The notes under the pieces: generated by a model
Database searches by the model: none
What the model was told of the DNA's origin: nothing
The model's input: the letters and a program-made list of their open reading frames with translations, nothing else
Position numbers and translations under genes: made by a program
Shown here: positions 21,768 to 39,371 of the stretch, in pieces
Layout: the number at the start of each line of letters is the position of its first letter
Numbering within the stretch: the stretch's first letter is position 1
Assembly (NCBI GenBank): GCA_018396955.1
Contig: JAGTQI010000001.1
Coordinates: forward strand, 6,467 to 70,466
Length of the DNA stretch: 64,000 nt
Reading direction: 5' to 3'
Source of the DNA: Candidatus Bathyarchaeota archaeon
GTDB taxonomy: Archaea; Thermoproteota; Bathyarchaeia; Bathyarchaeales; Bathycorpusculaceae

Positions 21768-21802
21768 AATTATTAAAATTTAATAAAGGGAATATAAAAA
21801 TT

Positions 21803-22218: not shown

Positions 22219-22613
22219 TCCAACACCTCCTTTAATATTTTTAATGCTTTACGCTTAAAAGCTTCCGGCGGAGTCAAATACTCCTCAAGCCTATCCATCT
22301 TCAACTTTTCAGCCCTAAGCAATGTTTCGCCTAGGACGGTTGCCTCGCTTCCACGCTTCATCCTCTCTAGGGCTGTGTTCAGGGATTCAGCAAAGCGGGT
22401 GCAGAAAGCCTCAGGCTTCTTTTCTGCCTCCCTTATAACCCTGTCAAAGAGTTTCAGGTAAACGTCATCCATGTTTTTTATGCTGGCATAATACATCAAG
22501 TCCGTAAGCCACCTGATGGCTTCGCTTGCACGATCCTTGGATAAGGCCTCAAGGATTTTTGCTGTGGCCTCTAACAAGACCTGCTTAGGCTCAGCCTCCA
22601 ACATGTTCACCAA
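22215..22613 (-). CDS. Hypothetical helical protein
   Basis: 132-aa ORF, first of a coupled three-gene run. Confidence 0.35.
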   Translation of the reverse strand: MVNMLEAEPKQVLLEATAKILEALSKDRASEAIRWLTDLMYYASIKNMDDVYLKLFDRVIREAEKKPEAFCTRFAESLNTALERMKRGSEATVLGETLLRAEKLKMDRLEEYLTPPEAFKRKALKILKEVLE

Positions 22614-22899
22614 ACAAGAATGGCGGAAACAAAAATAAAAATGCGTCGAAAATGGCTGTTAGGCGTAGCTTGGCAGAAAAAGAGGGGGATGCACCAGGCG
22701 CCAAGCAAGTCTTCTACATGGCTTCAAAGGCTGCCTTCATGTTCGAGAAAAGCTTCTCAAACACGCGCTCACACTTAGACTTGTCCACGCCTAGGTAACC
22801 GCAAACCTTGGCGCTATATTTTGCCTTGGCAATATCTTTAGCCATACCATCACCGTTCAAAAGAGAAGATTTAAAAATATTTTAATTTTTGTGAAACAA

Positions 22900-23082
22900 T
22901 CACATTTTCTCGTAGTATTCCCGCATTCCCTTAACCATCTGCACAATCATCCTAACGGACTTGGCGAGGTTCAAGTCGTGGCGCTTGCAGAAATTCAGGT
23001 AATATTTGACTCCGGCCTTCACCTGCTCTTCTGTCAGTCCTTTCTCTCTGAGGATTTTTTCAAGGCGCTGAACCTCTTCCAT
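22900..23082 (-). CDS. Hypothetical small protein
   Basis: 60-aa ORF. Confidence 0.25.
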   Translation of the reverse strand: MEEVQRLEKILREKGLTEEQVKAGVKYYLNFCKRHDLNLAKSVRMIVQMVKGMREYYEKM

Positions 23083-23363
23083 GCTTCCTCCTCCTCTTTC
23101 AGGTCTTCGTACCAGCCTTCCTTTTTGGCTTCTTCAATAACCTTTTCAGATGCTTGACGAAGGGCTTTCCCAACCTTATCCACGTCAACGGCCTCCAGCC
23201 CCAACGTTATACGGAACATGTTTATGGCAAGCCTCGTAGCCTCGCTCAGGCTAAGCCCTGTTTTCTCGCTTATCATTTGTATGAACTCAAGCTCCTCGTT
23301 TGTAAGCCTCAAATGAAGGGTTTCGGTAAGCCTTCCCCTGGATGGAGGTTTAGCCCTTCCCAT
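23034..23363 (-). CDS. Ribbon-helix-helix protein with charged C-terminal tail
   Basis: LHLRLTNEELEFIQMISEKTGLSLSEATRLAINMF. Confidence 0.5.
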   Translation of the reverse strand: MGRAKPPSRGRLTETLHLRLTNEELEFIQMISEKTGLSLSEATRLAINMFRITLGLEAVDVDKVGKALRQASEKVIEEAKKEGWYEDLKEEEEAWKRFSALKKSSERKD

Positions 23364-24173
23364 TCACTTCTCCCTTAGCTCGGTCAACATTTCCTTAACC
23401 CGCTGCATGGTGTATTCGAAGACTCCTAGGCGTTTCAGCTTTTCAGCCGACTCTGAAACCCGCTCTTTGCTGTCTGAAGCTAAACCATATATGGAGTCGA
23501 GGATTTCAGCCTCTTCAAACCCGAACCTGCTGGATATTTCGCGTGCGAGCGTCTCGCAGTAACTGCAGCGGCCATACTTTGAGTCGTAGTATTCAGCCGC
23601 CCTCCTGGTTGTTTCAACTATATCCTTCATGCGTGAAATAGCCTCCTTAAGCTTCGCGATATCCCTCTGGGTTGTTAGAAGCCTCTCAGTCCACGTCCAC
23701 TTCCTAAATTCTCTCTGCCTAGCCTTAATCTCGTCGATCATTTTAGCAAGCTCAGCATCCCTAATCTCTGTGCCGAGATCCTCCTCAGCCGTGACAATCT
23801 CCTTCAAGGCAGCCTCAACACGCTGTCTAGCCTCAGGCGTTATTTCACCCTTGCCGAGGCTGAACCTTTCAGCCTCTTCAAGAAGCCCATAAGCCTTCAG
23901 ATAGTGCTTTTCGAGGCACTCCAAACAGTAACTTTCTCTACTCTGTCCAGGATAGCTTGGCGATGCAACGTGTTCAGCTCTTCCAACGGGTTCTGGAAGC
24001 TTTGAAATTAAACGGCTGTCAGCTGATGCGAAAAGGTTGTCGAAGCTTTTAAGTGCTTTATCGATTTTCTGGATTGTTAGGTCGAAGTTCTCAATAAGCT
24101 TTATGGGGCCTTCTAGGATTTCACCTGGATTCTCAGGAATCTTTGGGAATGGAAGCTTCTTCCCCTCAGCCAT
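23364..24173 (-). CDS. Hypothetical protein with two Cys pairs (CLECLEKH, CSYCE)
   Basis: 269-aa ORF abutting its neighbours. Confidence 0.35.
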   Translation of the reverse strand: MAEGKKLPFPKIPENPGEILEGPIKLIENFDLTIQKIDKALKSFDNLFASADSRLISKLPEPVGRAEHVASPSYPGQSRESYCLECLEKHYLKAYGLLEEAERFSLGKGEITPEARQRVEAALKEIVTAEEDLGTEIRDAELAKMIDEIKARQREFRKWTWTERLLTTQRDIAKLKEAISRMKDIVETTRRAAEYYDSKYGRCSYCETLAREISSRFGFEEAEILDSIYGLASDSKERVSESAEKLKRLGVFEYTMQRVKEMLTELREK

Positions 24174-25475
24174 TTAACTTGTCCTCGTCTTCACTTTTGC
24201 GGCAGACTTAATGAGTTCGTCTTCAGCCTGAAGTATTTCCTCGCTTCTCTCCAGTTTCCGCCTTATCTCCTCGGCTTTCCTGGCTCTCTCTTCAGGAGTT
24301 CTTTTGACTTCGGGTTTCCATTCGCCGCCTGGAGCCGGAATCTTGTTCAGCAGCTGCGCAGCCCTCTGGTCAAGCCTCTCGGCAAGCGAGTCCAGCAGAT
24401 CCGCGGTTGTTCTGCCACCCTTTTGGAAGCCCAGCATGGGGGCAATTTCCTGAAAGGAGCGGAGCTCATCAAAGAAGCCAGGCCTCTTCTTCAGCTCTTC
24501 AAGGTCTCGTTGGAGCGCTTCAATCTCCTTCCTGTGCAGCTCCTCCCTAAGCTTTTCAATCTCCTTTTTGGAATCTTCGTCGCCCTTCAGATACAGCGGA
24601 GCCAAATAAGCTGGAATCTGAACTTCTCTGTCGCCAATTTTGATGGGGACTGTCGGCTCGTTCCTCTTCTCCGTTTCCTCGGCAATCTTCTTAATCTCAG
24701 CTTCAAGCTTCTTCATTGTGAGCTCGTGTTCCTGAGCCCTACGCTTGTCCTCCTCCTTTTCGCGTAAGAAGCGCTGCCAAGCCATAAAACCGCTCTCGTC
24801 AGTTTCAATTTCCTGCCCCTCAACAACAATCTTGTAGGTTTTTGGAGGCTTAGGCTGATATGCGAAATGAGGATAAGGCGGGGCATAAGTCGAAGGCGGA
24901 TAGAACGGATAATTCACCGGATAGGTTGGGGATGGAAGATAAAAGGTATAACCATAGGTCTGTTGAGGGCTAGGCGAATAAGTATAGGGTACTTGTTGAG
25001 GTTGAATTCCTCCCAAGTACTTATCTACAGCCTGGGCGAGGTTTGGAAACCGAACGTAAAGAGGCTTAATAACGCTTGTGGATAGATGCGCGTCATAAGC
25101 CCTTGGAGCCAAAGACTTAATAAACGCGTGGAGCAGGTTGCCATCCCTTAAAGGCGTCGGATCGTCCTCCAAGGCCTTAACAATTATCCTATCGTTCTTT
25201 CCAACACCGTAAACTTGGGCTAGACGCTCCTTTATGAAGGCGATTGCCTCCTCAATGGCTTCAACTTCAGGAGGCTTCGGGGCTTCAACCCCCACCCCCT
25301 CCTCCTCTTTCCTATGTTTCCAACGCATGTGCGCAGCATATTCCTGCATAGTTGCAAAGGACACTCCACACTCCTTACAAACGTATTGTGCTTGAACCCC
25401 TTCTTGCGTCAGCCGCTCAGATTCTTGCAAAGCCCTGTTTTCTTCTTCACCCTGCACAATATTTCCTTTGGTCAT
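24174..25475 (-). CDS. C2H2 zinc-finger protein with Pro/Tyr-rich low-complexity region and long coiled coil
   Basis: YVCKECGVSFATMQEYAAHMRWKH (C2H2); YPVNYPFYPPSTYAPPYPHFAYQPKPP. Confidence 0.5.
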   Translation of the reverse strand: MTKGNIVQGEEENRALQESERLTQEGVQAQYVCKECGVSFATMQEYAAHMRWKHRKEEEGVGVEAPKPPEVEAIEEAIAFIKERLAQVYGVGKNDRIIVKALEDDPTPLRDGNLLHAFIKSLAPRAYDAHLSTSVIKPLYVRFPNLAQAVDKYLGGIQPQQVPYTYSPSPQQTYGYTFYLPSPTYPVNYPFYPPSTYAPPYPHFAYQPKPPKTYKIVVEGQEIETDESGFMAWQRFLREKEEDKRRAQEHELTMKKLEAEIKKIAEETEKRNEPTVPIKIGDREVQIPAYLAPLYLKGDEDSKKEIEKLREELHRKEIEALQRDLEELKKRPGFFDELRSFQEIAPMLGFQKGGRTTADLLDSLAERLDQRAAQLLNKIPAPGGEWKPEVKRTPEERARKAEEIRRKLERSEEILQAEDELIKSAAKVKTRTS

Positions 25476-25660
25476 TTGTAACGCTCCGCCTCTATTGCTT
25501 TGAGGATTTCGTTAACTGTAAAGTGGAGGCAGACCCGAAGGGCGTCGCTGAGGGTTGGAGATTCAATTTTCCCAAGCTTATGAAGATAGTCTGCAAGCTT
25601 TTCAAGCATCTCCCGTTCCTCAGGTGCAAGTCGAACATAGACTGGTTGAGCTTGGCTCAC
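25472..25660 (-). CDS. RHH-like small protein
   Basis: VYVRLAPEEREMLEKLADYLHKLG..LSDALRVCLHF. Confidence 0.4.
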   Translation of the reverse strand: MSQAQPVYVRLAPEEREMLEKLADYLHKLGKIESPTLSDALRVCLHFTVNEILKAIEAERYK

Positions 25661-25711
25661 GAAACACCACTTTACAAAAAAATATTAAATCCTAACACTT
25701 TTATAAAGTTG

Positions 25712-26470
25712 ATGCTTATGAAGAGAATAGGAATCGTGAGCGGCAAAGGTGGTGTTGGCAAAAGCACCATAGCTGCAAGCATAGCCCTTGCCCTTGCATC
25801 CAAAGGATTCCAGGTGGGACTTGTAGATGTGGATGTCACGTGTCCCAACGTCCCAGATATTTTAGGAAAATCTGAGCTTGAAATAACAATGGATGATAGG
25901 TTCGCGCCGTCTATTGCTAGAGGTGTGAAATACGTATCAATAGGCCAGATTGCAAGAGAGGGCAACCCTATCCTCTGGGATCCTAAGGATCTTAGAAGCG
26001 CTGCCAAGCAGTTGTTGGAGCGGACTGAATGGGGAAGCCTTGACTATTTGGTCTGCGATTTTCCGCCAGGTTTTGAGGCTGAAACGTTGGAGTTGCTTCC
26101 CCTAATGGACTGTATTTTGATAGTTACAACGCCCTCAGCCCTTTCGCGGTCTAAGGTTGAGAGGATGGTTGAGGCAGCCCGCGAGTTTCAGATACCAGTT
26201 TTGGGCGTTGTTAAGAACATGAGCTACTTTGAATGTCCCTCATGCGGCTCCAGGCATAGAATATTCGCTGAGGACCACAGCTTCGAGGAGCTTGGTATTC
26301 CAACAATAGCCGAGTTTCCATTAAACTCCAAGATTGCGAATGAGAAGTGTATAAACGATTTTCCTGTTGAGGCCTTCCTGGAGGCTTTGAAGCATCCAGT
26401 TTTGTTGAAGAAAAGGCCTAAATCCTTGAGGAGGAAGCTGTTGGAGCTCATATTCAAGGTTAAAAGGTGA
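25712..26470 (+). CDS. Mrp/NBP35/ApbC-family P-loop ATPase (Fe-S cluster carrier type)
   Basis: Deviant Walker A SGKGGVGKST and MSYFECPSCGSRHRIF (the CPxC motif typical of Mrp/NBP35). Start set at ATG 25712; the track ORF extension overlaps minus-strand genes. Confidence 0.75.
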   Translation: MLMKRIGIVSGKGGVGKSTIAASIALALASKGFQVGLVDVDVTCPNVPDILGKSELEITMDDRFAPSIARGVKYVSIGQIAREGNPILWDPKDLRSAAKQLLERTEWGSLDYLVCDFPPGFEAETLELLPLMDCILIVTTPSALSRSKVERMVEAAREFQIPVLGVVKNMSYFECPSCGSRHRIFAEDHSFEELGIPTIAEFPLNSKIANEKCINDFPVEAFLEALKHPVLLKKRPKSLRRKLLELIFKVKR

Positions 26471-26474
26471 GCCT

Positions 26475-26867
26475 ATGCCCTACGTGAAAACCCTCATAGA
26501 TAGGCTTCTCTCAATCCAAGAGCGCTTCTATCCAGAGGCTAAGGAATACCTTAACATGGGAGAAGGGAAAGTTTCGTTGCTGAGGGTTGTCGGGATTGAC
26601 GGCGAAACCGTGCTCCTAAAATGTCAAGGCGGGCGAATACAGTATGCCCAAGGCAATGAAACTCCACTGCACATTTTCAGATGCACTTCTGACACTTTCC
26701 TTGATATTTTAAGCGGTGACGAAGACCTGCGGGAAGCGATAACAAAGGGACACTTCCTCATAGAAAGCGCCTCAACGGGGACCATCGACTTGGTGGAGAT
26801 GGAGAGGTGGTCAAAGGCCTTTGAAAGGCTTAGGGGGCTTGTGACAAAGTATGTTGCCCCTAAATGA
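26475..26867 (+). CDS. SCP2-like (sterol/lipid carrier) domain protein (tentative)
   Basis: ..FRCTSDTFLDILSGDEDLREAITKGHFLIES.. resembles the SCP2 C-terminal pattern. Confidence 0.35.
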   Translation: MPYVKTLIDRLLSIQERFYPEAKEYLNMGEGKVSLLRVVGIDGETVLLKCQGGRIQYAQGNETPLHIFRCTSDTFLDILSGDEDLREAITKGHFLIESASTGTIDLVEMERWSKAFERLRGLVTKYVAPK

Positions 26868-27159
26868 GCTTGTTGAAAAGACGGAGAGGGCTGTTGAAAC
26901 GGCGTTTTTGTGGCTTAGGATTTTGAAGGCTTTGAAGTGTAAGCCCATGTGTACGAGCGAGCTTAGAAGAAGCTTAAAACCCATGCCCCATAGGCCGACC
27001 ATGGAGGCAAGCCTCTTCCTTATGAGTGGCCTAGGGCTTGTTGAGAGGGTTGGGCAGGGCAGAGTTAAACCTTGGCGTTTAACAAGGAAGGGTGAAGAAA
27101 TCCTCGAAAGGGCTGGTGAACACCTTAAAAAACAGCTGAGGCTCCTCCTTGAGTCTTAA
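26851..27159 (+). CDS. Winged-helix transcription regulator
   Basis: LRILKALKCKPMCTSELRRSL...GLGLVERVGQGRVKPWRLTRKGEEIL. Confidence 0.45.
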   Translation: MLPLNELVEKTERAVETAFLWLRILKALKCKPMCTSELRRSLKPMPHRPTMEASLFLMSGLGLVERVGQGRVKPWRLTRKGEEILERAGEHLKKQLRLLLES

Positions 27160-27364
27160 GCTTCTCAAAAACCTTTTTAGGCTGAAGTGTGGCGGGCTAG
27201 CCATATTCGCCACGGTCTACGAGATTATGGATCATGAGTGGGCGGATGGAAAGCTCGCTTGTCCTCATGAAGGTTGCAAGCTGACGATCCAGCAGCATAT
27301 TAATGGAAAGCTTGTTGGAGAATTGAAGATTAAAACGTGTGCCGCCTGCGATCCGGGAGCCTAA
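27149..27364 (+). CDS. Hypothetical small Cys-containing protein
   Basis: 71-aa ORF. Confidence 0.25.
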   Translation: MSLKLLKNLFRLKCGGLAIFATVYEIMDHEWADGKLACPHEGCKLTIQQHINGKLVGELKIKTCAACDPGA

Positions 27365-28299
27365 ATGGAAGGCAACGTTGCTAAGCCGGCTATGACGGTT
27401 AGGGCTACAACTATGAAGGCTAGTATGGTGAAGCTGGCTAAAACTATTGACTTTCTCCCCTCTTCATCGTTGTGTAAGGCTGCCTGCTGGGCTATGAAGG
27501 ACAGTACTACGGCTAATGCTCCAAGCTTAAGGTTTGGCGGCAGCGTGAAATACAGTGTTAGGAAAGCAATGTAGAAGGGCAAATAGCAAATGTGCCTTAT
27601 AGCCTTCAAGCTTAAGCCTTTCCTGTAGAGGAAAACCGTCAAAGTGACTTTTGACTGTTTATTGTCTACTATGGTGTCTGGAAGGCTGTCGAGGGCTTTA
27701 ATTGAAATGAGGCTTATGAAGAGGGGGACACTTGCTGATACAATGAACGGGTCCAGAGCCTGCCTTTGGGAGTAGTAGCCGCAGTATAGGGCGAAGAGCA
27801 CTCCTATTTCCCACATGGTGTCTCCGAGGGCTGGTATTCTGTCTAGGCCGGCTGAATATGTTAGTGCGAGAAGCAAGCCGACCAAGGCTAGGGCAGAGTA
27901 AAGCCAGCCGATAAGAGTGGAAATGTGAAGCATGATTGAGACTCCGGTGATTGCGGATAGGGCCATGGCAGCTAAGTAATAATGTTTAGGGAGTATTGGG
28001 GCGTTTGGGATTTCGTATCCGAAGCCCCAGCGGGGGAGGTAACCGTCCTCCCTAAACCTTACAGAGTGAAGCTTCCTTCCCTCTTCATATTCCCCTTTGC
28101 GTATGTCCCAGTATGTGTCGTTTAAGTGGGCGGTGTAGAGGAAGCAGAAGGCGTTAAGCAAAACTAAACCCATGATTTTCCAGTTGAGATGTGGGCCGGC
28201 TGCGAAAAATCCTCCCAGCAGACATGTGAGAAGCATCAGGCTCATGGGCAATATCCTTACTTCAGCCATAAAGCCTCTAACAGCGCTCATGATGACCAT
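27361..28299 (-). CDS. UbiA-family prenyltransferase
   Basis: About 8 TM segments, first Asp-rich motif HLNDTYWDIRKGE, second ALDSLPDTIVDNKQSKVTLTVFLYRKG (D..D...G..TL.V.LG pattern). Confidence 0.6.
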   Translation of the reverse strand: MVIMSAVRGFMAEVRILPMSLMLLTCLLGGFFAAGPHLNWKIMGLVLLNAFCFLYTAHLNDTYWDIRKGEYEEGRKLHSVRFREDGYLPRWGFGYEIPNAPILPKHYYLAAMALSAITGVSIMLHISTLIGWLYSALALVGLLLALTYSAGLDRIPALGDTMWEIGVLFALYCGYYSQRQALDPFIVSASVPLFISLISIKALDSLPDTIVDNKQSKVTLTVFLYRKGLSLKAIRHICYLPFYIAFLTLYFTLPPNLKLGALAVVLSFIAQQAALHNDEEGRKSIVLASFTILAFIVVALTVIAGLATLPSI

Positions 28300-28357
28300 G
28301 CGGGCTTTTTAGAAATTATTTTATAAATGTTTGCCATGAATAGTAAATTGATGGCTG

Positions 28358-28597
28358 TTGTTTGAAGAATTTAGTGAACTGCTCAGTGTGGTGAAGGAGA
28401 TGAGTGAATTGGCAAACCTGTTTAGGGATTTGAGAGCCGACATGAAGAAGCTCATCGAAACATTAGCCGCCTTAAACAACCACATGTCAAAGCTTGAAAC
28501 CTTCGCGGAGTCCACCGCCAAACTTACAAGGGAGCTTGAGGAGGCGAACAGGAGCATCAAATCCTTAACTGATATGCTTAGGGAGCTGGGTAAATGA
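28358..28597 (+). CDS. Small coiled-coil protein
   Basis: 79-aa ORF overlapping the protease gene start by 4 nt. Confidence 0.35.
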   Translation: MFEEFSELLSVVKEMSELANLFRDLRADMKKLIETLAALNNHMSKLETFAESTAKLTRELEEANRSIKSLTDMLRELGK

Positions 28598-31206
28598 GCA
28601 CTGCACGAAGTGGGAAGGTTAACCCGTGGGCTGAAGAGGCCATTAAAAGGGTTGAAGCTAAAAGGAAGGAGCTTCAGGGCATACCCGCAGTTGTGGAGGT
28701 TGAGCCTGGAAAAGCCGAAATGGTTGCATCCCAGCTTAGAGGTTTAGGCTATAGTGTTGAAGGCGTTGTCAACGACTTTGTTTTCGTAGACCTTCCAGAA
28801 CCAGCAGACTTCGAGAGGGTTTCAAGGCTTCCATACGTAAGGATAGTTTCTGTCCAGAAGAGGATTTATCCGATGGCTCTTGGCGTTGACGAACTCTTTA
28901 AGAGGGTGGCCATAGCCACAGACCCGCTTCTCTCTAAGCTTGACGTTTCAGACCTTTACGCTTTAGGCGTCAGGGTTAAACCTGCAGCTGAAATCCCAAC
29001 ACCTTTCGGCGCCCTGGCAACTCTGGCAGCGGAGGCTTTCAAGTTTGCAGCCGACCCCCTTGGAAAGCTTATGGACTACGTTAGAGGCTTCCCGCCCGTA
29101 ATAGCAAGGGCTGACTGGAGGCTTGTCACGGATACAAGGAAGCTTATGGAGGCTCCAGACGACAACAGGCTTAACACAACATACGTTGGTAACATTGACA
29201 CGGGCATATACCTAAACCCTGCAATAGGCTTGCCTTTCATAAACTGGATATGCGACTCAATAACAGCCGAGCCTCCAATAGACACGATGGGGCATGGATG
29301 TCTAAGAAATGTTAATGTTTATACATCGTTCTGCGGTTTGGTAGCCCTCGAGGAGCTTTGGGGCTTAGTTGATGCGGAGCCAGTCCCCGTCAAAGATGGT
29401 GAGTTCAAACCCTTCACTAAAGAAGTCTCCACGATAGGACTGGAAGGCGTTTCTGGGGCGGGAGGCATTTTTAGAACAAGGGCTAGGGAGAAGGTTGTTA
29501 TAGAAACGTCCATGGGGGAAATCGAGGCAACTCCGTGGCACATGTTTCTTGTAGCGAATCCCAAGGTAGCCCCAAACTGCAAGAAAAGATGGTATGCAGG
29601 GTTCGAGTTGAAGGAGAAGAGGGCCGATGAGCTTAAGGCTAATGGGGAAAATAATGAGGGCGACTGGCTGGTTTTTAAGGCATACAACGGCGAATCATGG
29701 AGCAGCGGGCTGAACCCAAAAATAGCTTACATTGCCGGTTTAGTCAGGGGCGACGGAACAATAATTGATAAGAAATTTAAAGTTAAACGGAAGAATAGAC
29801 GTGGTAAGATATACCATACTACTACAAATAGGTATGAGGTAAGGATTGATGATAATTCAAGAGAGTTTCTAGAGAGGGTTAAAGAAATCGTTCAGAAAGG
29901 CTCTGTAAGGAAAAGAAATGAAAACGTGTATGAGCTAGCGTTCCTTGGAAAAGAACTTATTAAAGAGTTAGAGGCGTTACATGAACCCCCACTCAAGGAT
30001 CTAGAAGCTTTTAGAGCTTGGATAGCGGGATTCTTTGACGCTGAAGGATATGTTGATTTAAGAAACGATAGGTGGAGCTCACGTATAAGGATAGCGAACA
30101 CAGATGTAAAGCTACTAACACAGCTGAAAGACGCGTTAAACGCTATTGGAATACCGTGTACGCTTGTTGATGGCGGCGAAAGTAAAGGCAGTAAATCGTA
30201 TCACCTAACCATTCTAGTTCCCCAACTGTTTACGAGATTTGTGGAGCCCTACAGCATCAAGAAGATTGATGAGTTGAGGAAGGCGAACAGAACTGATAAC
30301 CCATCAATGCTTAGTAGGAAGATTAAATACGTCAACAATTACATCTTCGTCCCAGTAAAGAACGTTAAACTAGTTCAATGTGATGAATACTTCTACGATT
30401 TAGCGGATACAACATATGGCAACTATTCGGCCAGCGGTTTCATAGTTCATAATAGCTGGACCCATTCATGCGCCTTCGGTCAACCATGCCTCTCAAGATA
30501 TGGAACCTTCATTCCTGTGGCTTTGGCTCCATCCAGCTACCACGTTAAGGTGTTCACCGCGTTTGGTCCATGCTCAAGCTTCCAGATCATGAAGGCCATG
30601 GAAATGTGTGCAGTGAAAGGCTGTAAGGTTGTGAACATGAGTCTCGGCGGTCCATTGGAGGGAAGCGTTGAAGAGGATCCCGAATGTGTTTTGGCTGAGA
30701 AGCTTTACAGGCAGTATGGCACAAACTTCATAGTCGCGGCTGGAAACGACGGCGAGGAATGGAGCATAAACAGCCCGGGAGCCAGCCCATACGTTTTATG
30801 TGTGGCTGCCGTTGACTGGAAGACAATGGAAACGTCAAGCTATTCATCGCGTGGGCCGCAAGCAAGATGGTACAGGGATAACAAGGACGCCTATGACAGG
30901 GACTACCAAAAATACGGAGAAGACTTCTTGAAGCCAGATGTAGCCGGCATAGGCGGAGACAGAGAAAGCCAAATCGTAGCTGCGATGAGCCTATGGTACG
31001 ACGCCTTCTACGACTTGGTTCCAGACGGCTTCGACTTGATGATTGGCACGTCGATGGCTACACCCCATTGCTCAGGGCTTGCGGCTTTAGCCATAGACAG
31101 GGGCATACTCAGCAATATTGAAGATGTTAAGGCTAGAATGGCTCGCTTCGGAGAAAAATCTGCCGACAAAGGCTACGGGCTTTTAACATGGTCTAAGCTT
31201 CAATAA
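28594..31206 (+). CDS. Subtilisin-like (S8) serine protease precursor carrying an intein
   Basis: Catalytic motifs NIDTGI (Asp), MGHG|..|SWTH (His, split by the intein), AAGNDG (Asn), GTSMATPH (Ser); N-terminal propeptide-like domain. Confidence 0.85.
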   Translation: MSTARSGKVNPWAEEAIKRVEAKRKELQGIPAVVEVEPGKAEMVASQLRGLGYSVEGVVNDFVFVDLPEPADFERVSRLPYVRIVSVQKRIYPMALGVDELFKRVAIATDPLLSKLDVSDLYALGVRVKPAAEIPTPFGALATLAAEAFKFAADPLGKLMDYVRGFPPVIARADWRLVTDTRKLMEAPDDNRLNTTYVGNIDTGIYLNPAIGLPFINWICDSITAEPPIDTMGHGCLRNVNVYTSFCGLVALEELWGLVDAEPVPVKDGEFKPFTKEVSTIGLEGVSGAGGIFRTRAREKVVIETSMGEIEATPWHMFLVANPKVAPNCKKRWYAGFELKEKRADELKANGENNEGDWLVFKAYNGESWSSGLNPKIAYIAGLVRGDGTIIDKKFKVKRKNRRGKIYHTTTNRYEVRIDDNSREFLERVKEIVQKGSVRKRNENVYELAFLGKELIKELEALHEPPLKDLEAFRAWIAGFFDAEGYVDLRNDRWSSRIRIANTDVKLLTQLKDALNAIGIPCTLVDGGESKGSKSYHLTILVPQLFTRFVEPYSIKKIDELRKANRTDNPSMLSRKIKYVNNYIFVPVKNVKLVQCDEYFYDLADTTYGNYSASGFIVHNSWTHSCAFGQPCLSRYGTFIPVALAPSSYHVKVFTAFGPCSSFQIMKAMEMCAVKGCKVVNMSLGGPLEGSVEEDPECVLAEKLYRQYGTNFIVAAGNDGEEWSINSPGASPYVLCVAAVDWKTMETSSYSSRGPQARWYRDNKDAYDRDYQKYGEDFLKPDVAGIGGDRESQIVAAMSLWYDAFYDLVPDGFDLMIGTSMATPHCSGLAALAIDRGILSNIEDVKARMARFGEKSADKGYGLLTWSKLQ
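29299..30453 (+). mobile_element. Intein (385 aa) with LAGLIDADG homing-endonuclease domain
   Basis: Begins with Cys right after GHG, ends ..FIVHN followed by Ser+1. Two LAGLIDADG motifs (IAYIAGLVRGDGTI, WIAGFFDAEGYV). Confidence 0.85.
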
Positions 31207-31219
31207 GTAGGCTTGCGGT

Positions 31220-31522
31220 ATGCCCATAAAAATTTTGGAAAAGCTTAAAATTCCGCTTTTAGAGGTTGAGCTTCCAAGCGTTGAGCTCCCAGATTTTCCT
31301 CCGAAACCCATGCCAAAGCTTGATGATAGGCAGAGGGAGGTTCTCCGCTACGCTTTGATGGACGACCTCGCAGACGTCGTACCATTTGCTGGCGACGTGG
31401 CGTCGGATGTGGCTTACGCCGAGCTTAAGCGTTTAATGAAGCCTGAAGAGTATGAGCGCTTCGTTAAGGAGAATAAGTGGCTGCCCTCAGTTTTAGCTGC
31501 ATTAAAGGTTTTTGCGGAATAG
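31220..31522 (+). CDS. Hypothetical protein
   Basis: 100-aa ORF downstream of the protease. Confidence 0.35.
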   Translation: MPIKILEKLKIPLLEVELPSVELPDFPPKPMPKLDDRQREVLRYALMDDLADVVPFAGDVASDVAYAELKRLMKPEEYERFVKENKWLPSVLAALKVFAE

Positions 31523-31566
31523 AAAAAATTAAAAATATGAACGTTTATTATTGATTTGGTGGTTGA

Positions 31567-31818
31567 ATGCCCGAACTCCCCGATTTAACGGCTAAGCCTC
31601 CGCATAGGGTTGCGGACGATGTTTTAGACAGCCTAGTACGTGTTCCTAAAGAGTTGTCTGAATCTGTGTCTTCAGCCATAGATAAGGGGCCGTTGGGCTC
31701 TGCTGGTCCCCACAGGATGGCTGACAGCATTGCAAAGAGTATTGGAACTGCCATTGAAAACATAGGCGAGGGTATAGCCCAAGCCCTCGACGTGCCTACA
31801 AAGGCGGTGAAGAAGTAG
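31567..31818 (+). CDS. Hypothetical small protein
   Basis: 83-aa ORF abutting the next ORF. Confidence 0.3.
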   Translation: MPELPDLTAKPPHRVADDVLDSLVRVPKELSESVSSAIDKGPLGSAGPHRMADSIAKSIGTAIENIGEGIAQALDVPTKAVKK

Positions 31819-32157
31819 ATGCCTCCGCAGGAGCTTCCCAAAATATCATCCTTCACGCAGCTTTTGGCAGCGCCTGAAACCCAGTTTGAAAGCTTGGTTA
31901 AAGAAGCCTTGAAGGTGGAGCTGCCTCCAGGTCCGCAGTCAACCCTTCTGAAACTTCAAACTTCCCTTGAGGCTGGAAAGGCTCCGTCTTCTGAGGCTGT
32001 TGTTCCGAAGGCGCCTAAGCTGCCTGAGGTTCTCGGTAAACTCCCAACCCTGCCTAAGCTGGAGGATATCCTGCCCAGCGTAGAGAAGAGAGGCGAGTAC
32101 CAACTTTCTGGGGCTAAAGAGGAGAAACCGAAGACAGGTTACGTGATGAGCCGCTGA
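31819..32157 (+). CDS. Hypothetical Pro/Lys/Glu-rich protein
   Basis: 112-aa ORF with repeated PKLPE/LPKLE-like segments. Confidence 0.35.
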   Translation: MPPQELPKISSFTQLLAAPETQFESLVKEALKVELPPGPQSTLLKLQTSLEAGKAPSSEAVVPKAPKLPEVLGKLPTLPKLEDILPSVEKRGEYQLSGAKEEKPKTGYVMSR

Positions 32158-32216
32158 CCAATAAAATGGTCTTTGGCCGAATTTCGGTTAGCGGGAGCTT
32201 TGGTGGATGCTAGCTT

Positions 32217-32375
32217 TTACTCTGACAGCAGATAGCCCATCTTAAAGTGCCTTCTGAGAATCTGCTCGATTATTGCTGACCTGCTCATTCCAGTTTCCTC
32301 TGACAGCTTGTTAAGCCTTTCAAGCACTTCTCGAGTGAGAGCGATGCTGATGTTGACAGTCCTTTTCCTAGACAT
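32217..32375 (-). CDS. Ribbon-helix-helix (CopG) protein, 52 aa, not in the ORF track
   Basis: Own translation MSRKRTVNISIALTREVLERLNKLSEETGMSRSAIIEQILRRHFKMGYLLSE. Confidence 0.6.
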   Translation of the reverse strand: MSRKRTVNISIALTREVLERLNKLSEETGMSRSAIIEQILRRHFKMGYLLSE

Positions 32376-32449
32376 TGTTACTCCCTAATACAGACTGATA
32401 GTATCTTCTTATTAAAATTTAATTCCTTTTTGTAGATGGAGCTGGTTGT

Positions 32450-33148
32450 ATGGAGATTGAAGAGTTAAAGAGGTTGCTTGAGATAGATGCCAAGTCTGTT
32501 CTCAGCCGCAAGGTTGAGCCTTTTGGGACGGAATACGACATTGTGAAGCATGAGCTTGCGAAGATTAGGACGTTGAACATTTCGGAGAGAACCTTTGAGG
32601 TCCCGGGTTTGACGAGGAACCTTGAGCTTGTCTGCCAGGTCTTAGCCGAGTTTAAGGAGAAGGAGAAGCGTAACATCATGCCGCTTCAATATGCTAAGAG
32701 CGACGACATTGTTTTGATGCAGCTCCGACCAGAACACGTAGGCGAAAACTTCACGTATAAGAGGGATATAACGCTTGCAGCCGGCAAATACGTTGGAACC
32801 TTCAACGTTATTCCCCCAACAGCCGGCAAACTAACGGTTCCGACAAAGCAGATCTTCATCATCACGGACATAATAGAGCTTAGCCCCACAGCCCCCTTGA
32901 CGGCTGTTCAAGTTGTGGATGTGGATGGAGTCTCACAGTACCCAATTGAAGCCACCCTTATCACTAAGGCTACGGATATGCAGGTTTTCGAGTTCCCCCA
33001 CCCAGTTATCGCCGATGCAACGTTAGACATTGATGGAAAGGTTGAGTCGAAAACCGCAGGCGCAACCGTTACAACCTACGCGTTTCCAGTTGGCGTATGG
33101 ATAGGCTACGGCAAAGATGTGCCGGCACTAGCCAGACCAGGCGCATAG
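32450..33148 (+). CDS. Putative virion structural protein (beta-rich C-terminal two thirds)
   Basis: First gene of a same-strand run of tightly spaced genes with SDs; no recognisable family. Confidence 0.3.
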   Translation: MEIEELKRLLEIDAKSVLSRKVEPFGTEYDIVKHELAKIRTLNISERTFEVPGLTRNLELVCQVLAEFKEKEKRNIMPLQYAKSDDIVLMQLRPEHVGENFTYKRDITLAAGKYVGTFNVIPPTAGKLTVPTKQIFIITDIIELSPTAPLTAVQVVDVDGVSQYPIEATLITKATDMQVFEFPHPVIADATLDIDGKVESKTAGATVTTYAFPVGVWIGYGKDVPALARPGA

Positions 33149-33160
33149 GAGGCTGAATAA

Positions 33161-33334
33161 ATGCCAAAACCCGGATACCTTGCAGGGCACAGGCAACATA
33201 AACATTCAGTAACGGTTACTGTTGACCTGCCATCGCATACGCATGGGGGAGTTACAGCCGGAACAGATTCTACAGCTGCCTATGATTTCGCGCCAGTAAC
33301 AGTAACCGTGACCACCACTTCTGAGAAGGGCTAG
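33161..33334 (+). CDS. Small Thr/Val/His-rich protein, 57 aa, not in the ORF track
   Basis: SD aggagg lies 8 nt upstream of the ATG; MPKPGYLAGHRQHKHSVTVTVDLPSHTHGG.. Confidence 0.3.
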   Translation: MPKPGYLAGHRQHKHSVTVTVDLPSHTHGGVTAGTDSTAAYDFAPVTVTVTTTSEKG

Positions 33335-33404
33335 TTTCCCTTGCAGGGGGCTTGAACACAACAATGCGCTCCCGAAGTTTTTCTGAACGGAGGTTAAAAA
33401 CTGT

Positions 33405-34124
33405 ATGGTTGAGTTGAATAAGCCTATAGTTGAGTCTATCCTTGACGAGAACATGAACTTGGCCATTATCCTTCCAAAGGCTGTGGCTAAAGAGCCTGTA
33501 TTTGCCCTCTACTTTTTCCGTGTAATGCGAAGATACCCGCTCCACAGAACCTATGACGGCGAGCTTCCGGAAATTCCCGCAGGCGAAACGGTTGACTTCA
33601 AAATCATGGGAGAAACAGCCCTGGGAGGGGAGCCCGACATACTGGCCGTATGGGAGGAGAGGCCCTTCAGGATACTGCACTTCGCATTTGGCATTAGACC
33701 AAGCGAGATATGGCTTTACAGGAGCATTCCAGCGGGCACGCCGCAGACAGGCTGGGGCTACAAGGTTGAGCCTCCAAAAGTTGGAGACAAACGCGATTAT
33801 ATTCCGGGATGGCTAAGCCCCTATGACAATCCTACAGTGGCTACTGAATGCGTTCTATACCATAAGCTAAGCATAGAAATTGGGCTTAAAAACGACTCTG
33901 GAAGACCCATAAGGCCAAGCATGCGCATTCTTGGAGCAGGCTACGACACCATACAAATAACAAACAGAAACGTGATTGAGGGGATGCTGAGGCAGAAGCC
34001 TCCATGCAGGTTCCTAACCGTTGGAGGGCTTAGACATTTCACGTGGACAGTGCCAGAGGAGTGGGCTCCCCCAACAGAGGTTGACAAAGCCACAATAGAG
34101 AGAGTTTTGGCGGGAGGAAGCTGA
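33405..34124 (+). CDS. Putative structural protein
   Basis: 239-aa ORF with SD ggaggt; beta-rich. Confidence 0.3.
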   Translation: MVELNKPIVESILDENMNLAIILPKAVAKEPVFALYFFRVMRRYPLHRTYDGELPEIPAGETVDFKIMGETALGGEPDILAVWEERPFRILHFAFGIRPSEIWLYRSIPAGTPQTGWGYKVEPPKVGDKRDYIPGWLSPYDNPTVATECVLYHKLSIEIGLKNDSGRPIRPSMRILGAGYDTIQITNRNVIEGMLRQKPPCRFLTVGGLRHFTWTVPEEWAPPTEVDKATIERVLAGGS

Positions 34125-34125
34125 A

Positions 34126-34464
34126 TTGGCCAAGCCCGAAGACACTTTTGAAATGGAAGCTGAAGTTGGAACAAGCAAGGTTCCATTGACAAACAATACG
34201 GTTCCGCCTAACAAGTTTGCACGAAAAGTATATGGTATGCTGATACATAACAACGCGGCGACTGCAAACACGCTGACGCTTACAGTTGAACGGGAAGCAA
34301 CGGTTGAGAGGACACTTCCACCCATAACTTTAGACGCCTATGCCAGCATGGACATTTACAGGTCTGTGGATTCGCCTCTTTTCACCATGAATCCTGGACA
34401 AAACATCAAGGCATTAGCCAGCGCAAACACTATTTCAGTAATGCTTCAAGCCTACGACTTGTAA
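34126..34464 (+). CDS. Putative structural protein
   Basis: 112-aa ORF starting 2 nt after the previous stop. Confidence 0.3.
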   Translation: MAKPEDTFEMEAEVGTSKVPLTNNTVPPNKFARKVYGMLIHNNAATANTLTLTVEREATVERTLPPITLDAYASMDIYRSVDSPLFTMNPGQNIKALASANTISVMLQAYDL

Positions 34465-34489
34465 AGCGCTTTAAACTGGTAAGTTTGGA

Positions 34490-35068
34490 ATGGAGATCCC
34501 CATTCAAAGGCTTTTAGATGTTCTCACAAGGGTGGACGAGCTACTCGTTTTGCTTCTTAGGGTTGAGGAGCAGCAGTTAAAGCTTTTGCAGGCAATATCC
34601 GAGAAAATTGGCGCTCCAGCCGCGCCAGCGGTTCCGCACGAAAAAATTGAGGAGCTTGTCAGGGAGTTTAGAATACCCGAAGTTGTGGTTAGGCAGATAA
34701 TTGAGAGGGTTGCGCCGCCACCAGCAACCGTTGGACTTACAGCCGAAAGCGTTAATGAGCTGGCTAGAAAGTTGGCGGAACGCCTTCCACAGCTGCCTAA
34801 CAGGGCTGGCAAAATCGAGTTTGACACTTCAATTACAGTGTGGAAAAGCATGAGGGAGGCGAAGAAGCTTAAGCCCGCAGTAGCCCTTGGCTTTTGGGTT
34901 GAGGAGGTTGGAGGAGGATTCGAGTACACCATCGCTAAGGGAGAGATCCTTTCAGACGCAAAAAGGGCTGAGGTTGGCGACAGATGGGACATAGAATTCG
35001 ATGACATACAAATCAGGGGATTGGGAGCCGAAGGGACTGCCCGGATATGGTATTGGTGGCGGGAATAG
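34490..35068 (+). CDS. Hypothetical protein
   Basis: 192-aa ORF in the same gene run. Confidence 0.3.
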   Translation: MEIPIQRLLDVLTRVDELLVLLLRVEEQQLKLLQAISEKIGAPAAPAVPHEKIEELVREFRIPEVVVRQIIERVAPPPATVGLTAESVNELARKLAERLPQLPNRAGKIEFDTSITVWKSMREAKKLKPAVALGFWVEEVGGGFEYTIAKGEILSDAKRAEVGDRWDIEFDDIQIRGLGAEGTARIWYWWRE

Positions 35069-35071
35069 CCC

Positions 35072-35401
35072 GTGCCCGGCTTGAGTTCCCCTGGGAGGCT
35101 GATCCGCGAGCTTCCCCGCATGGCCCGAGACTTGACCGTGGCGAAAATTGACCTTGGAGTTGCAAGGCCTAACCCTGTTGAGCTAAATGAGCTTTCGCCA
35201 GCCGTTAGCCTAACGATATTTAGGCTTACCGGAACCATGGAGCTATACCTTCAAAGGGCCGATGAAAAGCGTAAGATCACTTTTGAACCTATTGCCTATC
35301 CGCAGATGTTCCTCATAGACTGGTTCAGGGTTGAGCATGTTTACGTTGCAAACGTGGCTCAGCCCGGGAAGGAAGCCGTCATAATCGCTTGGAAAAGCTG
35401 A
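35072..35401 (+). CDS. Hypothetical protein
   Basis: 109-aa ORF. Confidence 0.3.
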   Translation: MPGLSSPGRLIRELPRMARDLTVAKIDLGVARPNPVELNELSPAVSLTIFRLTGTMELYLQRADEKRKITFEPIAYPQMFLIDWFRVEHVYVANVAQPGKEAVIIAWKS

Positions 35402-35411
35402 GGGATGAACG

Positions 35412-35783
35412 GTGCCGGGCTTATTGTCTTATGGGGCTCCACCTCCATCGCCTCCAGCAGCCCTGGAAGTTGTCAAGGAGGGTGTTTTAACCGCTGACGG
35501 TACGGAGCAGGAGTTAGTTGCTGTTGCGGGTCTGGCGGAATATTATGGTTTAATCAGCCTTGACAGGATGACTGTTGGCGACAAGGTGGCTGTAAGCCTC
35601 TACGTGAAAATGACGGCGGAGGGCGAATGGAAACGCTACCGCCGAATGGAATACGCAGGCCCCCAGGAGGATCCTGTCCTCCATTTGCTGGTGAAGGTGG
35701 CGAGACACGGCTTTCGCGTGACGCTCCACCAGTTTGAAGGCGTACCCAAAACATTTGAATACTGCTTTTATAAAAAATTATAA
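35412..35783 (+). CDS. Hypothetical protein
   Basis: 123-aa ORF. Confidence 0.3.
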   Translation: MPGLLSYGAPPPSPPAALEVVKEGVLTADGTEQELVAVAGLAEYYGLISLDRMTVGDKVAVSLYVKMTAEGEWKRYRRMEYAGPQEDPVLHLLVKVARHGFRVTLHQFEGVPKTFEYCFYKKL

Positions 35784-35793
35784 AGGGAAGCAT

Positions 35794-36078
35794 ATGCCTG
35801 AATACCCAACCTTCACCGAGATAAAAACCGTTGTGATGCCCATAGGCGTTTGGGTTTCCGAAGGGTTGCCGCTTAACGCCAAGCCCGCATATATTACGCC
35901 CATAGACGTAAGAGATGTGAAGGAGTTAACCCTGCAACCAACGTATATTACGCCGACAGATACGAAGGACGTGGAAGCGCTTACGCTACAACCCACATAC
36001 TCAGTTTCTGTTGACTTGGAAGACGCGAAAGTGTTGTCCGCAGCCCCAACATACACGTATACCGTTAAGGTGAGCTAG
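35794..36078 (+). CDS. Small protein with tandem peptide repeats
   Basis: AYITPIDVRDVKELTLQPTY / ITPTDTKDVEALTLQPTY / SVSVDLEDAKVLSAAPTY. Start set at ATG 35794. Confidence 0.35.
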   Translation: MPEYPTFTEIKTVVMPIGVWVSEGLPLNAKPAYITPIDVRDVKELTLQPTYITPTDTKDVEALTLQPTYSVSVDLEDAKVLSAAPTYTYTVKVS

Positions 36079-36079
36079 C

Positions 36080-36640
36080 ATGACTGTAAAAATAAACGTT
36101 GAGTACGAGGTTAAAGTGATAGACAAAACAGGCAAAATTGTTAAGACAGTTAAAGGGAGAAGCAGAACCTTCAACATGAACTTCGCAAGGCTGTTGGGCT
36201 TACTCTTCCAGAGAGGTGATGTAGGCGCAAGCATTTCAGCCACAGACATAGGCGGAGTGGGGAGAACATTTGCCAACAACACTTCAGCCAATCCCCTCAA
36301 TGTCAGCACCTCCGCAGGTAACAAGCTGAGGCTCCACATAGGGTCAAGCAATGCGCCATTCGACAGGTCCCATTACGAAATGCAAGCTTTAATCGCCACG
36401 TTCGACTATTCAACATGGAGCCTAACAGATGACGGCACAAAAGTTAAAGTGGACATTTCGGGAAGCTGGATCAACCCTGGAGCGGCAGTAACCGTGAGGG
36501 AGATAGGCTTTGATGTGGTTTACTACGACACCAGCGCCTATTTAAGGAGGGTTCTGCTCGCCAGAGACGTCATTCCAGACACCATTGTAGACACTGGCAG
36601 GACAATAGCGGTTGCTTACTCCATAACAATACCCTTCTAG
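36080..36640 (+). CDS. Putative structural protein (beta-rich)
   Basis: 186-aa ORF starting 2 nt after the previous stop. Confidence 0.3.
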   Translation: MTVKINVEYEVKVIDKTGKIVKTVKGRSRTFNMNFARLLGLLFQRGDVGASISATDIGGVGRTFANNTSANPLNVSTSAGNKLRLHIGSSNAPFDRSHYEMQALIATFDYSTWSLTDDGTKVKVDISGSWINPGAAVTVREIGFDVVYYDTSAYLRRVLLARDVIPDTIVDTGRTIAVAYSITIPF

Positions 36641-36655
36641 AAGGATTGAGCAAGC

Positions 36656-36778
36656 ATGAGCACACCAACAGAGATTAAATGCTCCAAATGCGGCAAAACA
36701 AACGCAAGAATCGCCAAATTCACAACTGGAACAAGCGGAGAAGAATACATCTGCGAAGAATGCGCCAAAACACGTTAA
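36656..36778 (+). CDS. Zinc-ribbon mini-protein, 40 aa, not in the ORF track
   Basis: MSTPTEIKCSKCGKTNARIAKFTTGTSGEEYICEECAKTR (CxxC..CxxC). Confidence 0.35.
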   Translation: MSTPTEIKCSKCGKTNARIAKFTTGTSGEEYICEECAKTR

Positions 36779-36981
36779 ATAAGCATCTTCCAAACTGTGA
36801 GGATAATAGTCAGAACTACGGTGACCAGAACAGCCCACAAACGATTATCCAAACTTTTAACTCTGTCCTTTATGTCCGCCAAAACATTATCCACACCGTC
36901 CAATCGAGCCTCAACCCTGGCTAAACGCTCTCGAATTTCCGCCACTAACGGGTTATCCTCTTTGTTGCCCATTGTAAGCAC
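36775..36981 (-). CDS. XhlA-like protein (coiled coil plus C-terminal TM helix)
   Basis: IRERLARVEARLDGVDNVLADIKDRVKSLDNRLWAVLVTVVLTIILTVW. Confidence 0.4.
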   Translation of the reverse strand: MLTMGNKEDNPLVAEIRERLARVEARLDGVDNVLADIKDRVKSLDNRLWAVLVTVVLTIILTVWKMLI

Positions 36982-36985
36982 GAAC

Positions 36986-37264
36986 CTATTCTTTCCCCTT
37001 TAACAGCTTTGAGGCGGTTCTCACAACGTCAAGAACAGCCGTTACGGCAACGGCTCCCTCAACGCCAAACCCCGGATACTGGCTTATCAACACGAGGAAG
37101 GTTTCCCACCACATGAGGGTTTCACCAAACCTGCCAACGTCAAACTTTTCCATGCTGTTCCTAAACCTGTTGCCCAAGTAGCCTAAAACGACCCTGAGGA
37201 CAGCTATGACAAAAGCCAGCAGAACTGGGTTCTCAACAGCGGCTAACGTGAGGTTTTCAAACAT
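36986..37264 (-). CDS. Holin-like small membrane protein
   Basis: 92 aa, two or three TM segments, charged C-terminus (SKLLKGKE). Adjacent to the XhlA-like gene. Confidence 0.35.
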   Translation of the reverse strand: MFENLTLAAVENPVLLAFVIAVLRVVLGYLGNRFRNSMEKFDVGRFGETLMWWETFLVLISQYPGFGVEGAVAVTAVLDVVRTASKLLKGKE

Positions 37265-37451
37265 TTCAAATCAAATAAAATTTAAATAAAGGTATTTTAA
37301 AAACTTTACAGTAGGGAATGATGAAAACACACGCCGAAAATGAAACTCTCCTTTCTCCCCTCTGCAGCATTCTGGAAAATGAGCTGACCCTTGGTTTTGC
37401 TAGAGTTTACGTATGTATATGATGAACAGTAAATAATAAATAGTTAATAAA

Positions 37452-37481
37452 TAGTATAGTATAGTAATATAGTATAGTATA
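37452..37481. repeat. AT-rich direct repeat tagtatagtata x2 in a divergent intergenic region
   Basis: Copies at 37452-37463 and 37470-37481 within an AT-rich spacer of about 250 nt. Confidence 0.5.
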
Positions 37482-37513
37482 CTTATTAAATTTGTTTAAG
37501 AGGTGACCAAGGG

Positions 37514-37888: not shown

Positions 37889-37895
37889 TAGCCGA

Positions 37896-38318: not shown

Positions 38319-38441
38319 AATGGCTGAACAACTTTGTTATGCTTCAACTGTTCAAATGGATTGCCGGAGAGCTTTACGAAGTTATATGAAAGCGACGGAT
38401 TGCAATAAACGTTAACTTCCTACGCCAACTTTAGGCGCAAT

Positions 38442-39272: not shown

Positions 39273-39371
39273 CAGCCACCTATTATTATAGATTTAGCTA
39301 TAAAAATTTTGTGTCAAAAAAGCACGGAGAGTGTTCGACAGTCGACCACCGTGGCGCATAAACAATAAAAT

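Follow-up and report, generated by a model that had tools for sequence, protein, structure and literature searches.

Here we consider a window of 64,000 nucleotides (nt), the whole stretch of DNA that was analysed, from contig JAGTQI010000001.1 of a Candidatus Bathyarchaeota archaeon, and in particular a gene in it that encodes a pro-protease of the S8 (subtilisin) family interrupted by an intein. The precursor gene is a single uninterrupted open reading frame (ORF) of 870 codons plus a stop codon; the exact precursor protein is also present in the NCBI nr database, and its Pfam matches are to Peptidase_S8, Intein_splicing and LAGLIDADG_3. The parts of the gene, in window coordinates and with protein positions in amino acids (aa), are as follows.

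28594..31206, forward strand: S8 (subtilisin-family) pro-protease precursor gene, intein-interrupted
28594..29298, forward strand: N-extein, aa 1-235, from alignment to the subtilisin-like proteases 9ues/3afg
29197-29199, forward strand: catalytic Asp202 of the N-extein, from alignment to 9ues/3afg
29293-29295, forward strand: catalytic His234 of the N-extein, from alignment to 9ues/3afg
29299..30453 (1155 nt), forward strand: intein, 385 aa, a class-1 Hedgehog/intein (HINT) domain with an inserted LAGLIDADG homing endonuclease
29299..29361, forward strand: block A (CLRNVNVYTSFCGLVALEELW), including Cys1 (29299-29301), conserved across the intein lineage
29530..29541, forward strand: block B TxxH motif, TPWH; T-x-W-H in every member of the lineage that covers this stretch
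29722..29763, forward strand: LAGLIDADG motif 1 (IAYIAGLVRGDGTI); its Asp (GDG) aligns with the D of I-DmoI GLIIGDG
30010..30054, forward strand: LAGLIDADG motif 2 (FRAWIAGFFDAEGYV); its Glu (AEG) aligns with the E of I-DmoI GLYVAEG
30385..30453, forward strand: blocks F and G (EYFYDLADTTYGNYSA / SGFIVHN), whose last two residues are His and the terminal Asn
30454..31203, forward strand: C-extein, aa 621-870, which holds Ser+1, the oxyanion Asn and the catalytic Ser
30454-30456, forward strand: Ser+1 nucleophile (codon 621, AGC)
30745-30747, forward strand: oxyanion Asn718 (N333 in spliced numbering)
31051-31053, forward strand: catalytic Ser820 in GTSMATPH (S435 in spliced numbering)

The junctions read IDTMGHG|CLRNVNVY...SGFIVHN|SWTHSCAFG (vertical bars mark the insertion points), with codon 236 (TGT, 29299-29301) encoding Cys1, codons 619-620 (CAT AAT, 30448-30453) encoding the His-Asn pair and codon 621 encoding Ser. 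The insertion point comes directly after the Gly next to the catalytic His and directly before the residue that corresponds to the Thr of the classical HGT motif. The intein splits the catalytic set of the protease, with Asp and His upstream of it in the N-extein and Asn and Ser downstream in the C-extein. It is reasonable to infer from this arrangement that the unspliced precursor would be inactive as a protease. An earlier interpretation made from the letters of the window, hereafter the sequence-only reading, had proposed the coordinates 29299-30453, the length of 385 aa and the junction residues, and the ORF and the codon reading show all of these to be right to the base. The same reading had described the insert as a canonical LAGLIDADG intein in an S8 protease, a description borne out by the splicing blocks, the Pfam thresholds, the predicted fold and the exact restoration of an intein-free allele on removal of the insert.

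Blocks A, B, F and G are all present in the insert; the Asp of block F is in place (YFYDLA), and block G reads FIVHN and is followed by Ser+1. Taken alone, the insert matches the Pfam Intein_splicing model (PF14890) with 40.6 bits (gathering cut-off 35.8), LAGLIDADG_3 (PF14528) with 58.9 bits (cut-off 22.5) over intein aa 239-316, and LAGLIDADG_1 with 25.4 bits; the first two matches are far stronger than chance would give. Phmmer alignment to the I-DmoI chains 2vs8/1b24 sets the acidic residues of the two LAGLIDADG motifs, the Asp in GDG and the Glu in AEG, against the D and E that bind metal and serve catalysis in I-DmoI. The homing endonuclease is therefore probably still functional. The AlphaFold2 (AF2) model of the whole precursor, built from 38 aligned sequences, has a mean predicted local distance difference test score (pLDDT) of 85, and the insert is predicted to adopt the HINT fold: the top Foldseek matches of the model in the Protein Data Bank (PDB) are TliVMA 7qsu (E 8.7e-20), PI-PfuI 1dq3, PhoVMA 7qst and PI-SceI 1vde, with E values of the intein matches from 1e-13 to 9e-20. 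Subtilisins follow the inteins in the same ranking, at a template modelling score TMt of ~0.6. Over aa 227-234, immediately ahead of the junction, the pLDDT is lower than 50; the protease part is otherwise free of poorly predicted stretches. The GC content of the intein is 0.432, that of the exteins 0.505 and 0.510.

What, then, is the protein that the intein interrupts? The ligated exteins match Peptidase_S8 (PF00082) with 76.7 bits and solved subtilisin-like proteases at E ~1e-11; the motifs NIDTG, GHG|S, AAGNDG and GTSMATPH align with the subtilisin Asp, His, oxyanion-Asn and Ser motifs, respectively, and D202, H234, N333 and S435 (spliced numbering) are invariant across an alignment of 32 intein-free relatives. 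These alignments show the spliced protein to be an S8 protease that retains the full D-H-N-S set. The calculated masses are 97.0 kDa for the precursor, 53.1 kDa for the ligated exteins (485 aa) and 43.9 kDa for the intein (385 aa). A beta-alpha-beta-beta-alpha-beta unit at aa 30-88 (28681-28857), assigned by DSSP on the AF2 model, is propeptide-like, and a match to Pfam I9 is absent; no hydrophobic stretch resembling a signal peptide was seen when the N-terminus of the protease was read by eye. The subtilase IetS of the IetAS defence system was considered as a relative and rejected: the match (E 3.5e-6, 23.6 bits) represents generic S8 similarity, and there is no IetA-like neighbour.

Evidence on the nature of the insert also comes from alleles that lack it. 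The search for intein-free alleles that the sequence-only reading had proposed as a check did find them: with the ligated exteins as the query, intein-free proteins of exactly 485 aa were recovered at 92, 91 and 89% aa identity (P0001, P0002 and P0003, respectively), in syntenic surroundings, along with the further intein-free partial sequences P0015, P0125 and P0017. Two encoding contigs were compared with the window, namely L001 (NCBI GCA_038874495.1) and L002 (Logan assembly, SRR24425230). Deletion of the 1155 nt leaves a 1458-nt gene that aligns gap-free with the alleles of L001 (87.7% nt identity) and L002 (86.8%). The alignment of the window with these contigs starts at 19093 or 20269 of the window and runs to 35117, at 84-89% nt identity, and its sole large gap is 29299-30453. 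The gene order common to all three consists of an integrase, an unknown protein of ~435 aa, another of ~270 aa, a ParA-like ATPase and a UbiA prenyltransferase, and continues with a 79-aa ORF, the protease and ORFs of 100, 83, 112 and 232 aa. A variable spot is apparent in this block: L002 has an extra gene for a 281-aa protein between the protease and the 100-aa ORF (11472-12317 of that contig) that is missing from the window and from L001.

The comparison with the empty sites defines the presumed homing site, whose two halves flank the intein.

29287..29298, forward strand: left half of the presumed homing site (ATGGGGCATGGA), from comparison with the empty sites in L001 and L002
30454-30474 of the window, forward strand: right half of the presumed homing site (AGCTGGACCCATTCATGCGCC), contiguous with the left half in intein-free alleles

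In L001, where the protease allele occupies 8937-10394, the empty site reads ...GACACGATGGGGCATGGA|AGCTGGACCCATTCATGCGCC..., and the empty-site sequence with its variants is ATGGG[G/T/C]CATGGA|AGCTGGAC[C/G/A]CATTCATGCGCC. No clear signal of co-conversion tracts was detected in the extein DNA beside the junction when the window was compared with L001 and L002.

How widespread, then, are inteins of this lineage? When 1.84 billion representative proteins were searched exhaustively by HMMER with the intein as the query, 41 of them matched at E <= 1e-3; a word-indexed homologue search gave 3 and missed P0070, so that the lineage is visible only by exhaustive HMMER. A genome scan with patterns derived from the family alignment was uninformative, the patterns being generic S8 motifs and the matches actinomycete subtilases. 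Parsing of the junctions in the HMMER matches, with insert positions in relatives determined by pairwise alignment with cheap gap extension, identified at least 22 representative S8 clusters that carry a homologous intein at the identical HG|C...N|[S/T] junction, with same-site relatives (P0162, P0163, P0164 and P0070 among them) at 30-56% intein identity. The same-site hosts range to classical HG|THVAG subtilisins (P0177, P0186) and to giant proteins of >2000 aa, and independent assemblies from other samples bear homologous inteins at the same site. The distant element that carries the His-site S8 intein of P0070 (contig L088) also encodes a free-standing endonuclease with LAGLIDADG_3 and NUMOD3 domains (911-1780 of that contig).

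The catalytic His motif is not the only one to be invaded. Mini-inteins occupy the His site in P0173 and P0176, and P0168 and P0176 have double inteins, the second of which is located at the catalytic-Ser motif (G|C...HN|TSMATPH), with one of these inteins only 98 aa long. In P0009, P0040, P0044 and P0050, an unrelated intein lies at GT|C...VHN|SMATPH, so that the catalytic Ser is itself the +1 nucleophile. An unrelated intein directly follows the catalytic Asp in P0060 (VLD|S...LHN|TG), and another unrelated one is inserted four residues before the catalytic His in P0004/P0010. Of these, P0004 is a particularly close relative of the protease in the window, with exteins 92% identical and a Ser1 intein five codons upstream (PPID|S...HHN|TMGHG). 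Within the clade of 89-92% extein identity, the intein of the window is the only copy found, and in the family as recovered with the ligated exteins some 7 of 67 clusters carry inteins, the window's own copy excluded. The lineage is also represented in a non-protease protein, in P0121 (208-2172 of contig L090) and P0167, where the junction is NG|C...SN|SWAI and the intein is 44% identical; these sequences suggest an ectopic transfer to a look-alike site. Furthermore, intein and extein identities are discordant among the relatives: P0163 is 55.6% identical in the intein and 35% in the extein, as against 36% and 48%, respectively, for P0168.

The sequence-only reading had also placed the protease on a mobile element, and this holds given the integrase, the ParA/ParB proteins, the primase, the break in GC content and the synteny with L001-L006. 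The genes assigned to this putative element and to its surroundings are listed here.

9311..39394, boundaries tentative: putative integrated mobile element with the protease, from Pfam matches, GC content, a repeat and synteny
0.4-8.2 kb: cellular genes for FrhB, formylmethanofuran-H4MPT formyltransferase, aRF1 and RadA
9803-10843: apparent Rad51/RadA-like recombinase of the element, with the cellular RadA nearby at 7086-8150
11872-12534: archaeo-eukaryotic (AEP) primase, from Pfam
15830-16684: ATP-dependent DNA ligase, from Pfam
20925-21767, reverse strand: tyrosine integrase, Pfam Phage_integrase
27361-28299, reverse strand: UbiA-family prenyltransferase, adjoining the protease
38442-39272: second ParB, from Pfam
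Within 9311..39394: other element genes, namely a ParB with a helix-turn-helix (HTH) domain, a methyltransferase and a ParA/Mrp-like ATPase, from Pfam
From ~40 kb: metabolic genes and a restriction/defence cluster

The block at ~9.3-39.4 kb has a GC content of 0.479, compared to 0.427 and 0.387 in the flanks (1-9310 and 39395-64000, respectively), and the protease module is found again in L003-L006 and L088, more distantly related contigs of 55-61 kb. The integrase, the replication and partition genes, the break in GC content and the syntenic block that recurs in L001-L006 identify the region as an integrated mobile element. An attachment (att) site repeat was not found with a 14-nt seed within 17-42 kb. 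A wider repeat search yielded one 23-nt direct repeat, TTATATGGCTAAAA[G/A]CCACAAAA, with 22 of the 23 bases identical, at 9311-9333 and 39372-39394, on either side of the higher-GC block; an ATG follows each copy at a distance of 20-40 nt, and the repeat could represent either an att site or a shared promoter. The close relatives of the proteins encoded in the window are labelled Bathyarchaeia or Thermoproteota in NCBI nr. The intein-free protease had no match by tblastn among the INPHARED phages and archaeal viruses; in IMG/VR, a close-pattern scan gave no match and an alignment-based scan gave one distant relative, L007, at 33% identity. PHROGs and NCBIfam gave no matches for the element-specific proteins. 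Judged from conserved synteny, the protease probably processes the element's own proteins.

Thus, we consider it very probable that a canonical class-1 intein lies between Gly235 and Ser236 (spliced numbering) of an S8 pro-protease encoded on an integrated archaeal mobile element, and that it is there through selfish homing. The case for homing is made by the patchy distribution of the intein, by its phylogeny, which is discordant with that of the extein, by its lower GC content and by its intact endonuclease motifs. The intein is most readily viewed as a selfish passenger, which persists through being lodged in an indispensable, strongly conserved active-site motif. Under this scenario, a 97-kDa precursor would be translated, in which Cys1 would start an N-S acyl shift, the hydroxyl of Ser+1 would attack the resulting thioester and Asn385 would cyclise. 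The N-terminal part ending in ..GHG would thereby be ligated to SWTH.., rebuilding the HG[S/T] catalytic-His motif of the 53-kDa pro-protease and freeing the 44-kDa intein. When related elements share a cell, the freed LAGLIDADG nuclease would cut intein-less alleles at ATGGGGCATGGA|AGCTGGACC, and recombinational repair would copy the intein into the cut allele. The RadA-like recombinase encoded on the element could help homing.

Several considerations weigh against this interpretation or at least temper it. The closest relative of the intein, at only ~55% identity, is too distant to show that homing into this element was recent, and the lower GC content of the intein need not indicate a foreign origin, as the Lys-rich composition of the endonuclease may account for part of it. 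Splicing and endonuclease activity are both predictions from conserved residues. Moreover, the proteins neighbouring the protease have no family matches in PHROGs, NCBIfam, PADLOC or Pfam, and the role of the protease is one that we infer.

Could the insertion serve the element instead? The sequence-only reading had suggested that the dependence of the protease on splicing may be a timing switch, and in the more general form of this idea the intein has been recruited as a regulatory latch that keeps the protease inactive until a redox, temperature or life-cycle cue permits splicing. The catalytic-His motif is indeed broken by the insertion, and an inactive precursor is therefore expected; the low-pLDDT stretch at aa 227-234 immediately precedes the junction; a second Cys at intein position 12, kept in most members of the lineage, could in principle pair with Cys1; and each of the three catalytic motifs of this protease family harbours inteins. 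However, sister elements 89-92% identical have no intein at all, which implies that a latch is not required, and the patchy distribution, discordant with the extein, together with the intact endonuclease motifs, are hallmarks of selfish elements. As for the preference for catalytic motifs, insertion at such places is the general rule for inteins and does not call for regulation, given that their endonucleases target conserved DNA. We have to conclude that a co-opted latch is improbable, and that the timing switch finds no support, the intein-free sister elements and the patchy, discordant distribution being what is expected of a selfish homing element. The more specific proposal of a zymogen-style latch gated by Cys1/Cys12 or by temperature, with selection for latches as the reason why unrelated inteins repeatedly occupy the Asp, His and Ser motifs, appears distinctly improbable.

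Two further possibilities deny the intein its function or its identity. A splicing-dead or slow intein would effectively inactivate the protease gene within a decaying integrated element, and it is true that the element sits in a chromosome and that no close relative of the intein is known. Yet Cys1, TxxH, the block F Asp, His-Asn and Ser+1 are all present, the 2.6 kb of the gene contain no frameshift or stop, the exteins keep all the catalytic residues, and the syntenic neighbour genes are intact and collinear with those of L001 and L002, all of which makes such decay highly unlikely. That the insert is not an intein at all, being instead some other domain, a bacterial intein-like (BIL) or Hint domain without ligation or an assembly chimera, is barely conceivable. 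The sole point in favour of this view is that the source is a metagenome-assembled contig, whereas the codon-exact junctions restore a gap-free allele, the Pfam intein models are matched above threshold, the predicted fold matches solved inteins, homologues are present at the same site in independent assemblies, and Ser+1 and the terminal Asn set the insert apart from BIL domains. Selfish homing of a canonical intein is thus the best explanation, and the mechanism is ordinary intein biology in which nothing fundamental is changed.

Proteases are already known as intein hosts, namely the chloroplast ClpP of Chlamydomonas eugametos, archaeal LonB and the Lon proteins of Nucleocytoviricota and Anaeramoeba (PMC4760082; PMC10710043). 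The present case shares with these a protease host but differs in the family, ClpP belonging to S14 and Lon to S16. Lon inteins sit in the ATPase part of Lon. No report of a natural intein in a subtilase was found in the portion of the literature covered, which is incomplete and includes the two surveys (PMC4760082; PMC10710043) and a paper on Bathyarchaeia viruses. Among the papers listed that bring up exteins together with subtilisin, the subjects, judged on title and abstract, are protein engineering, gene editing or genomes without a connection to this question. The Salmacisia genome paper was examined as a possible precedent and set aside, as inteins and subtilisins are treated there separately. 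The Peptidase_S8 plus Intein_splicing architecture is already visible in database annotations. The sequence-only reading had called a protease an uncommon host; this is fair with respect to the literature, where the surveys feature ClpP and LonB/Lon and no subtilase, but not with respect to sequence space, given the at least 22 S8 clusters. The subtilases of archaeal mobile elements thus apparently represent an undescribed, multiply invaded intein host.

The solved inteins PI-PfuI (1dq3), TliVMA/PhoVMA (7qsu, 7qss, 7qst) and PI-SceI (1vde) have the same HINT plus LAGLIDADG build, the same class-1 chemistry (Cys1, TxxH, HN and a +1 nucleophile) and a conserved active-site insertion; they differ from the intein described here in sequence (12-18% identity) and in that their hosts are ribonucleotide reductase and V-type ATPase rather than a protease. 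The haloarchaeal MCM gene harbours four intein sites (PMC10643990). As in MCM, the subtilase has several independent sites in its catalytic core, and empty and occupied alleles coexist among close relatives; in contrast to MCM, which belongs to the cellular replisome, the subtilase is a protease encoded on a mobile element, and its intein sites coincide with the Asp, His and Ser motifs of the catalytic triad. Among the inteins of viruses and phages, such as those in the large terminase subunit, co-infection supplies intein-less homing targets (PMC4760082). The intein of the window similarly travels on a mobile genome, but its host gene encodes a protease rather than a packaging or replication protein, and the element matches no phage or archaeal virus catalogued in INPHARED.

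These findings add subtilisin-family proteases, which are unrelated to nucleic acids or ATP, to the hosts of inteins, and the host gene in this case comes from archaeal mobile elements not otherwise characterised. A single small enzyme presents a natural series of alleles, comprising empty, Asp-site, pre-His-site, His-site, Ser-site, mini-intein and double-intein forms, which is suited to the study of homing-site choice, of interference between neighbouring inteins and of intein decay. The distribution implies that the elements frequently meet and recombine, so the intein could be used as a marker of gene flow. Inteins of thermophile origin that rebuild the active site of a protease, some of them with the catalytic Ser as the +1 residue, are possible tools for switchable proteases. 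If the latch reading were true after all, splicing would time the activation of a potentially self-damaging protease in the life cycle of the element.

Some other genes of the element and of its surroundings merit a mention. The 232-aa neighbour of the protease (32450-33148) is highly conserved, with 39 near-identical database members; its model, with a pLDDT of 89, consists of a helical N-terminus and a beta-sandwich that weakly resembles jelly-roll capsid proteins (birnavirus VP2, PCV2 and SPV1; template modelling score TMq ~0.3), making it a possible virion protein. The UbiA prenyltransferase is kept beside the protease in L001-L004 and in L088 (1-875 and 6195-7088 of the latter), and its companions in L088 include a geranylgeranyl-reductase-like gene and glycosyltransferases, which hints at lipid or envelope modification by the element. 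The low-GC region at 50049-59619, which resembles a defence island, encodes a 557-aa protein with an HNH domain, the HsdM and HsdS subunits of a type I restriction-modification system, a 386-aa unknown protein, a HerA/HAS-barrel ATPase (with a weak PADLOC match to mad8) and a protein with a B12-binding domain. Genes of the eRF1 family, one aRF1-like and one Pelota-like, are located near both ends of the window, at 2683-3957 and 61673-62782, respectively, and the sole tRNA gene in the window, for tRNA-Ala, is at 61054-61129, far from the presumed ends of the element.

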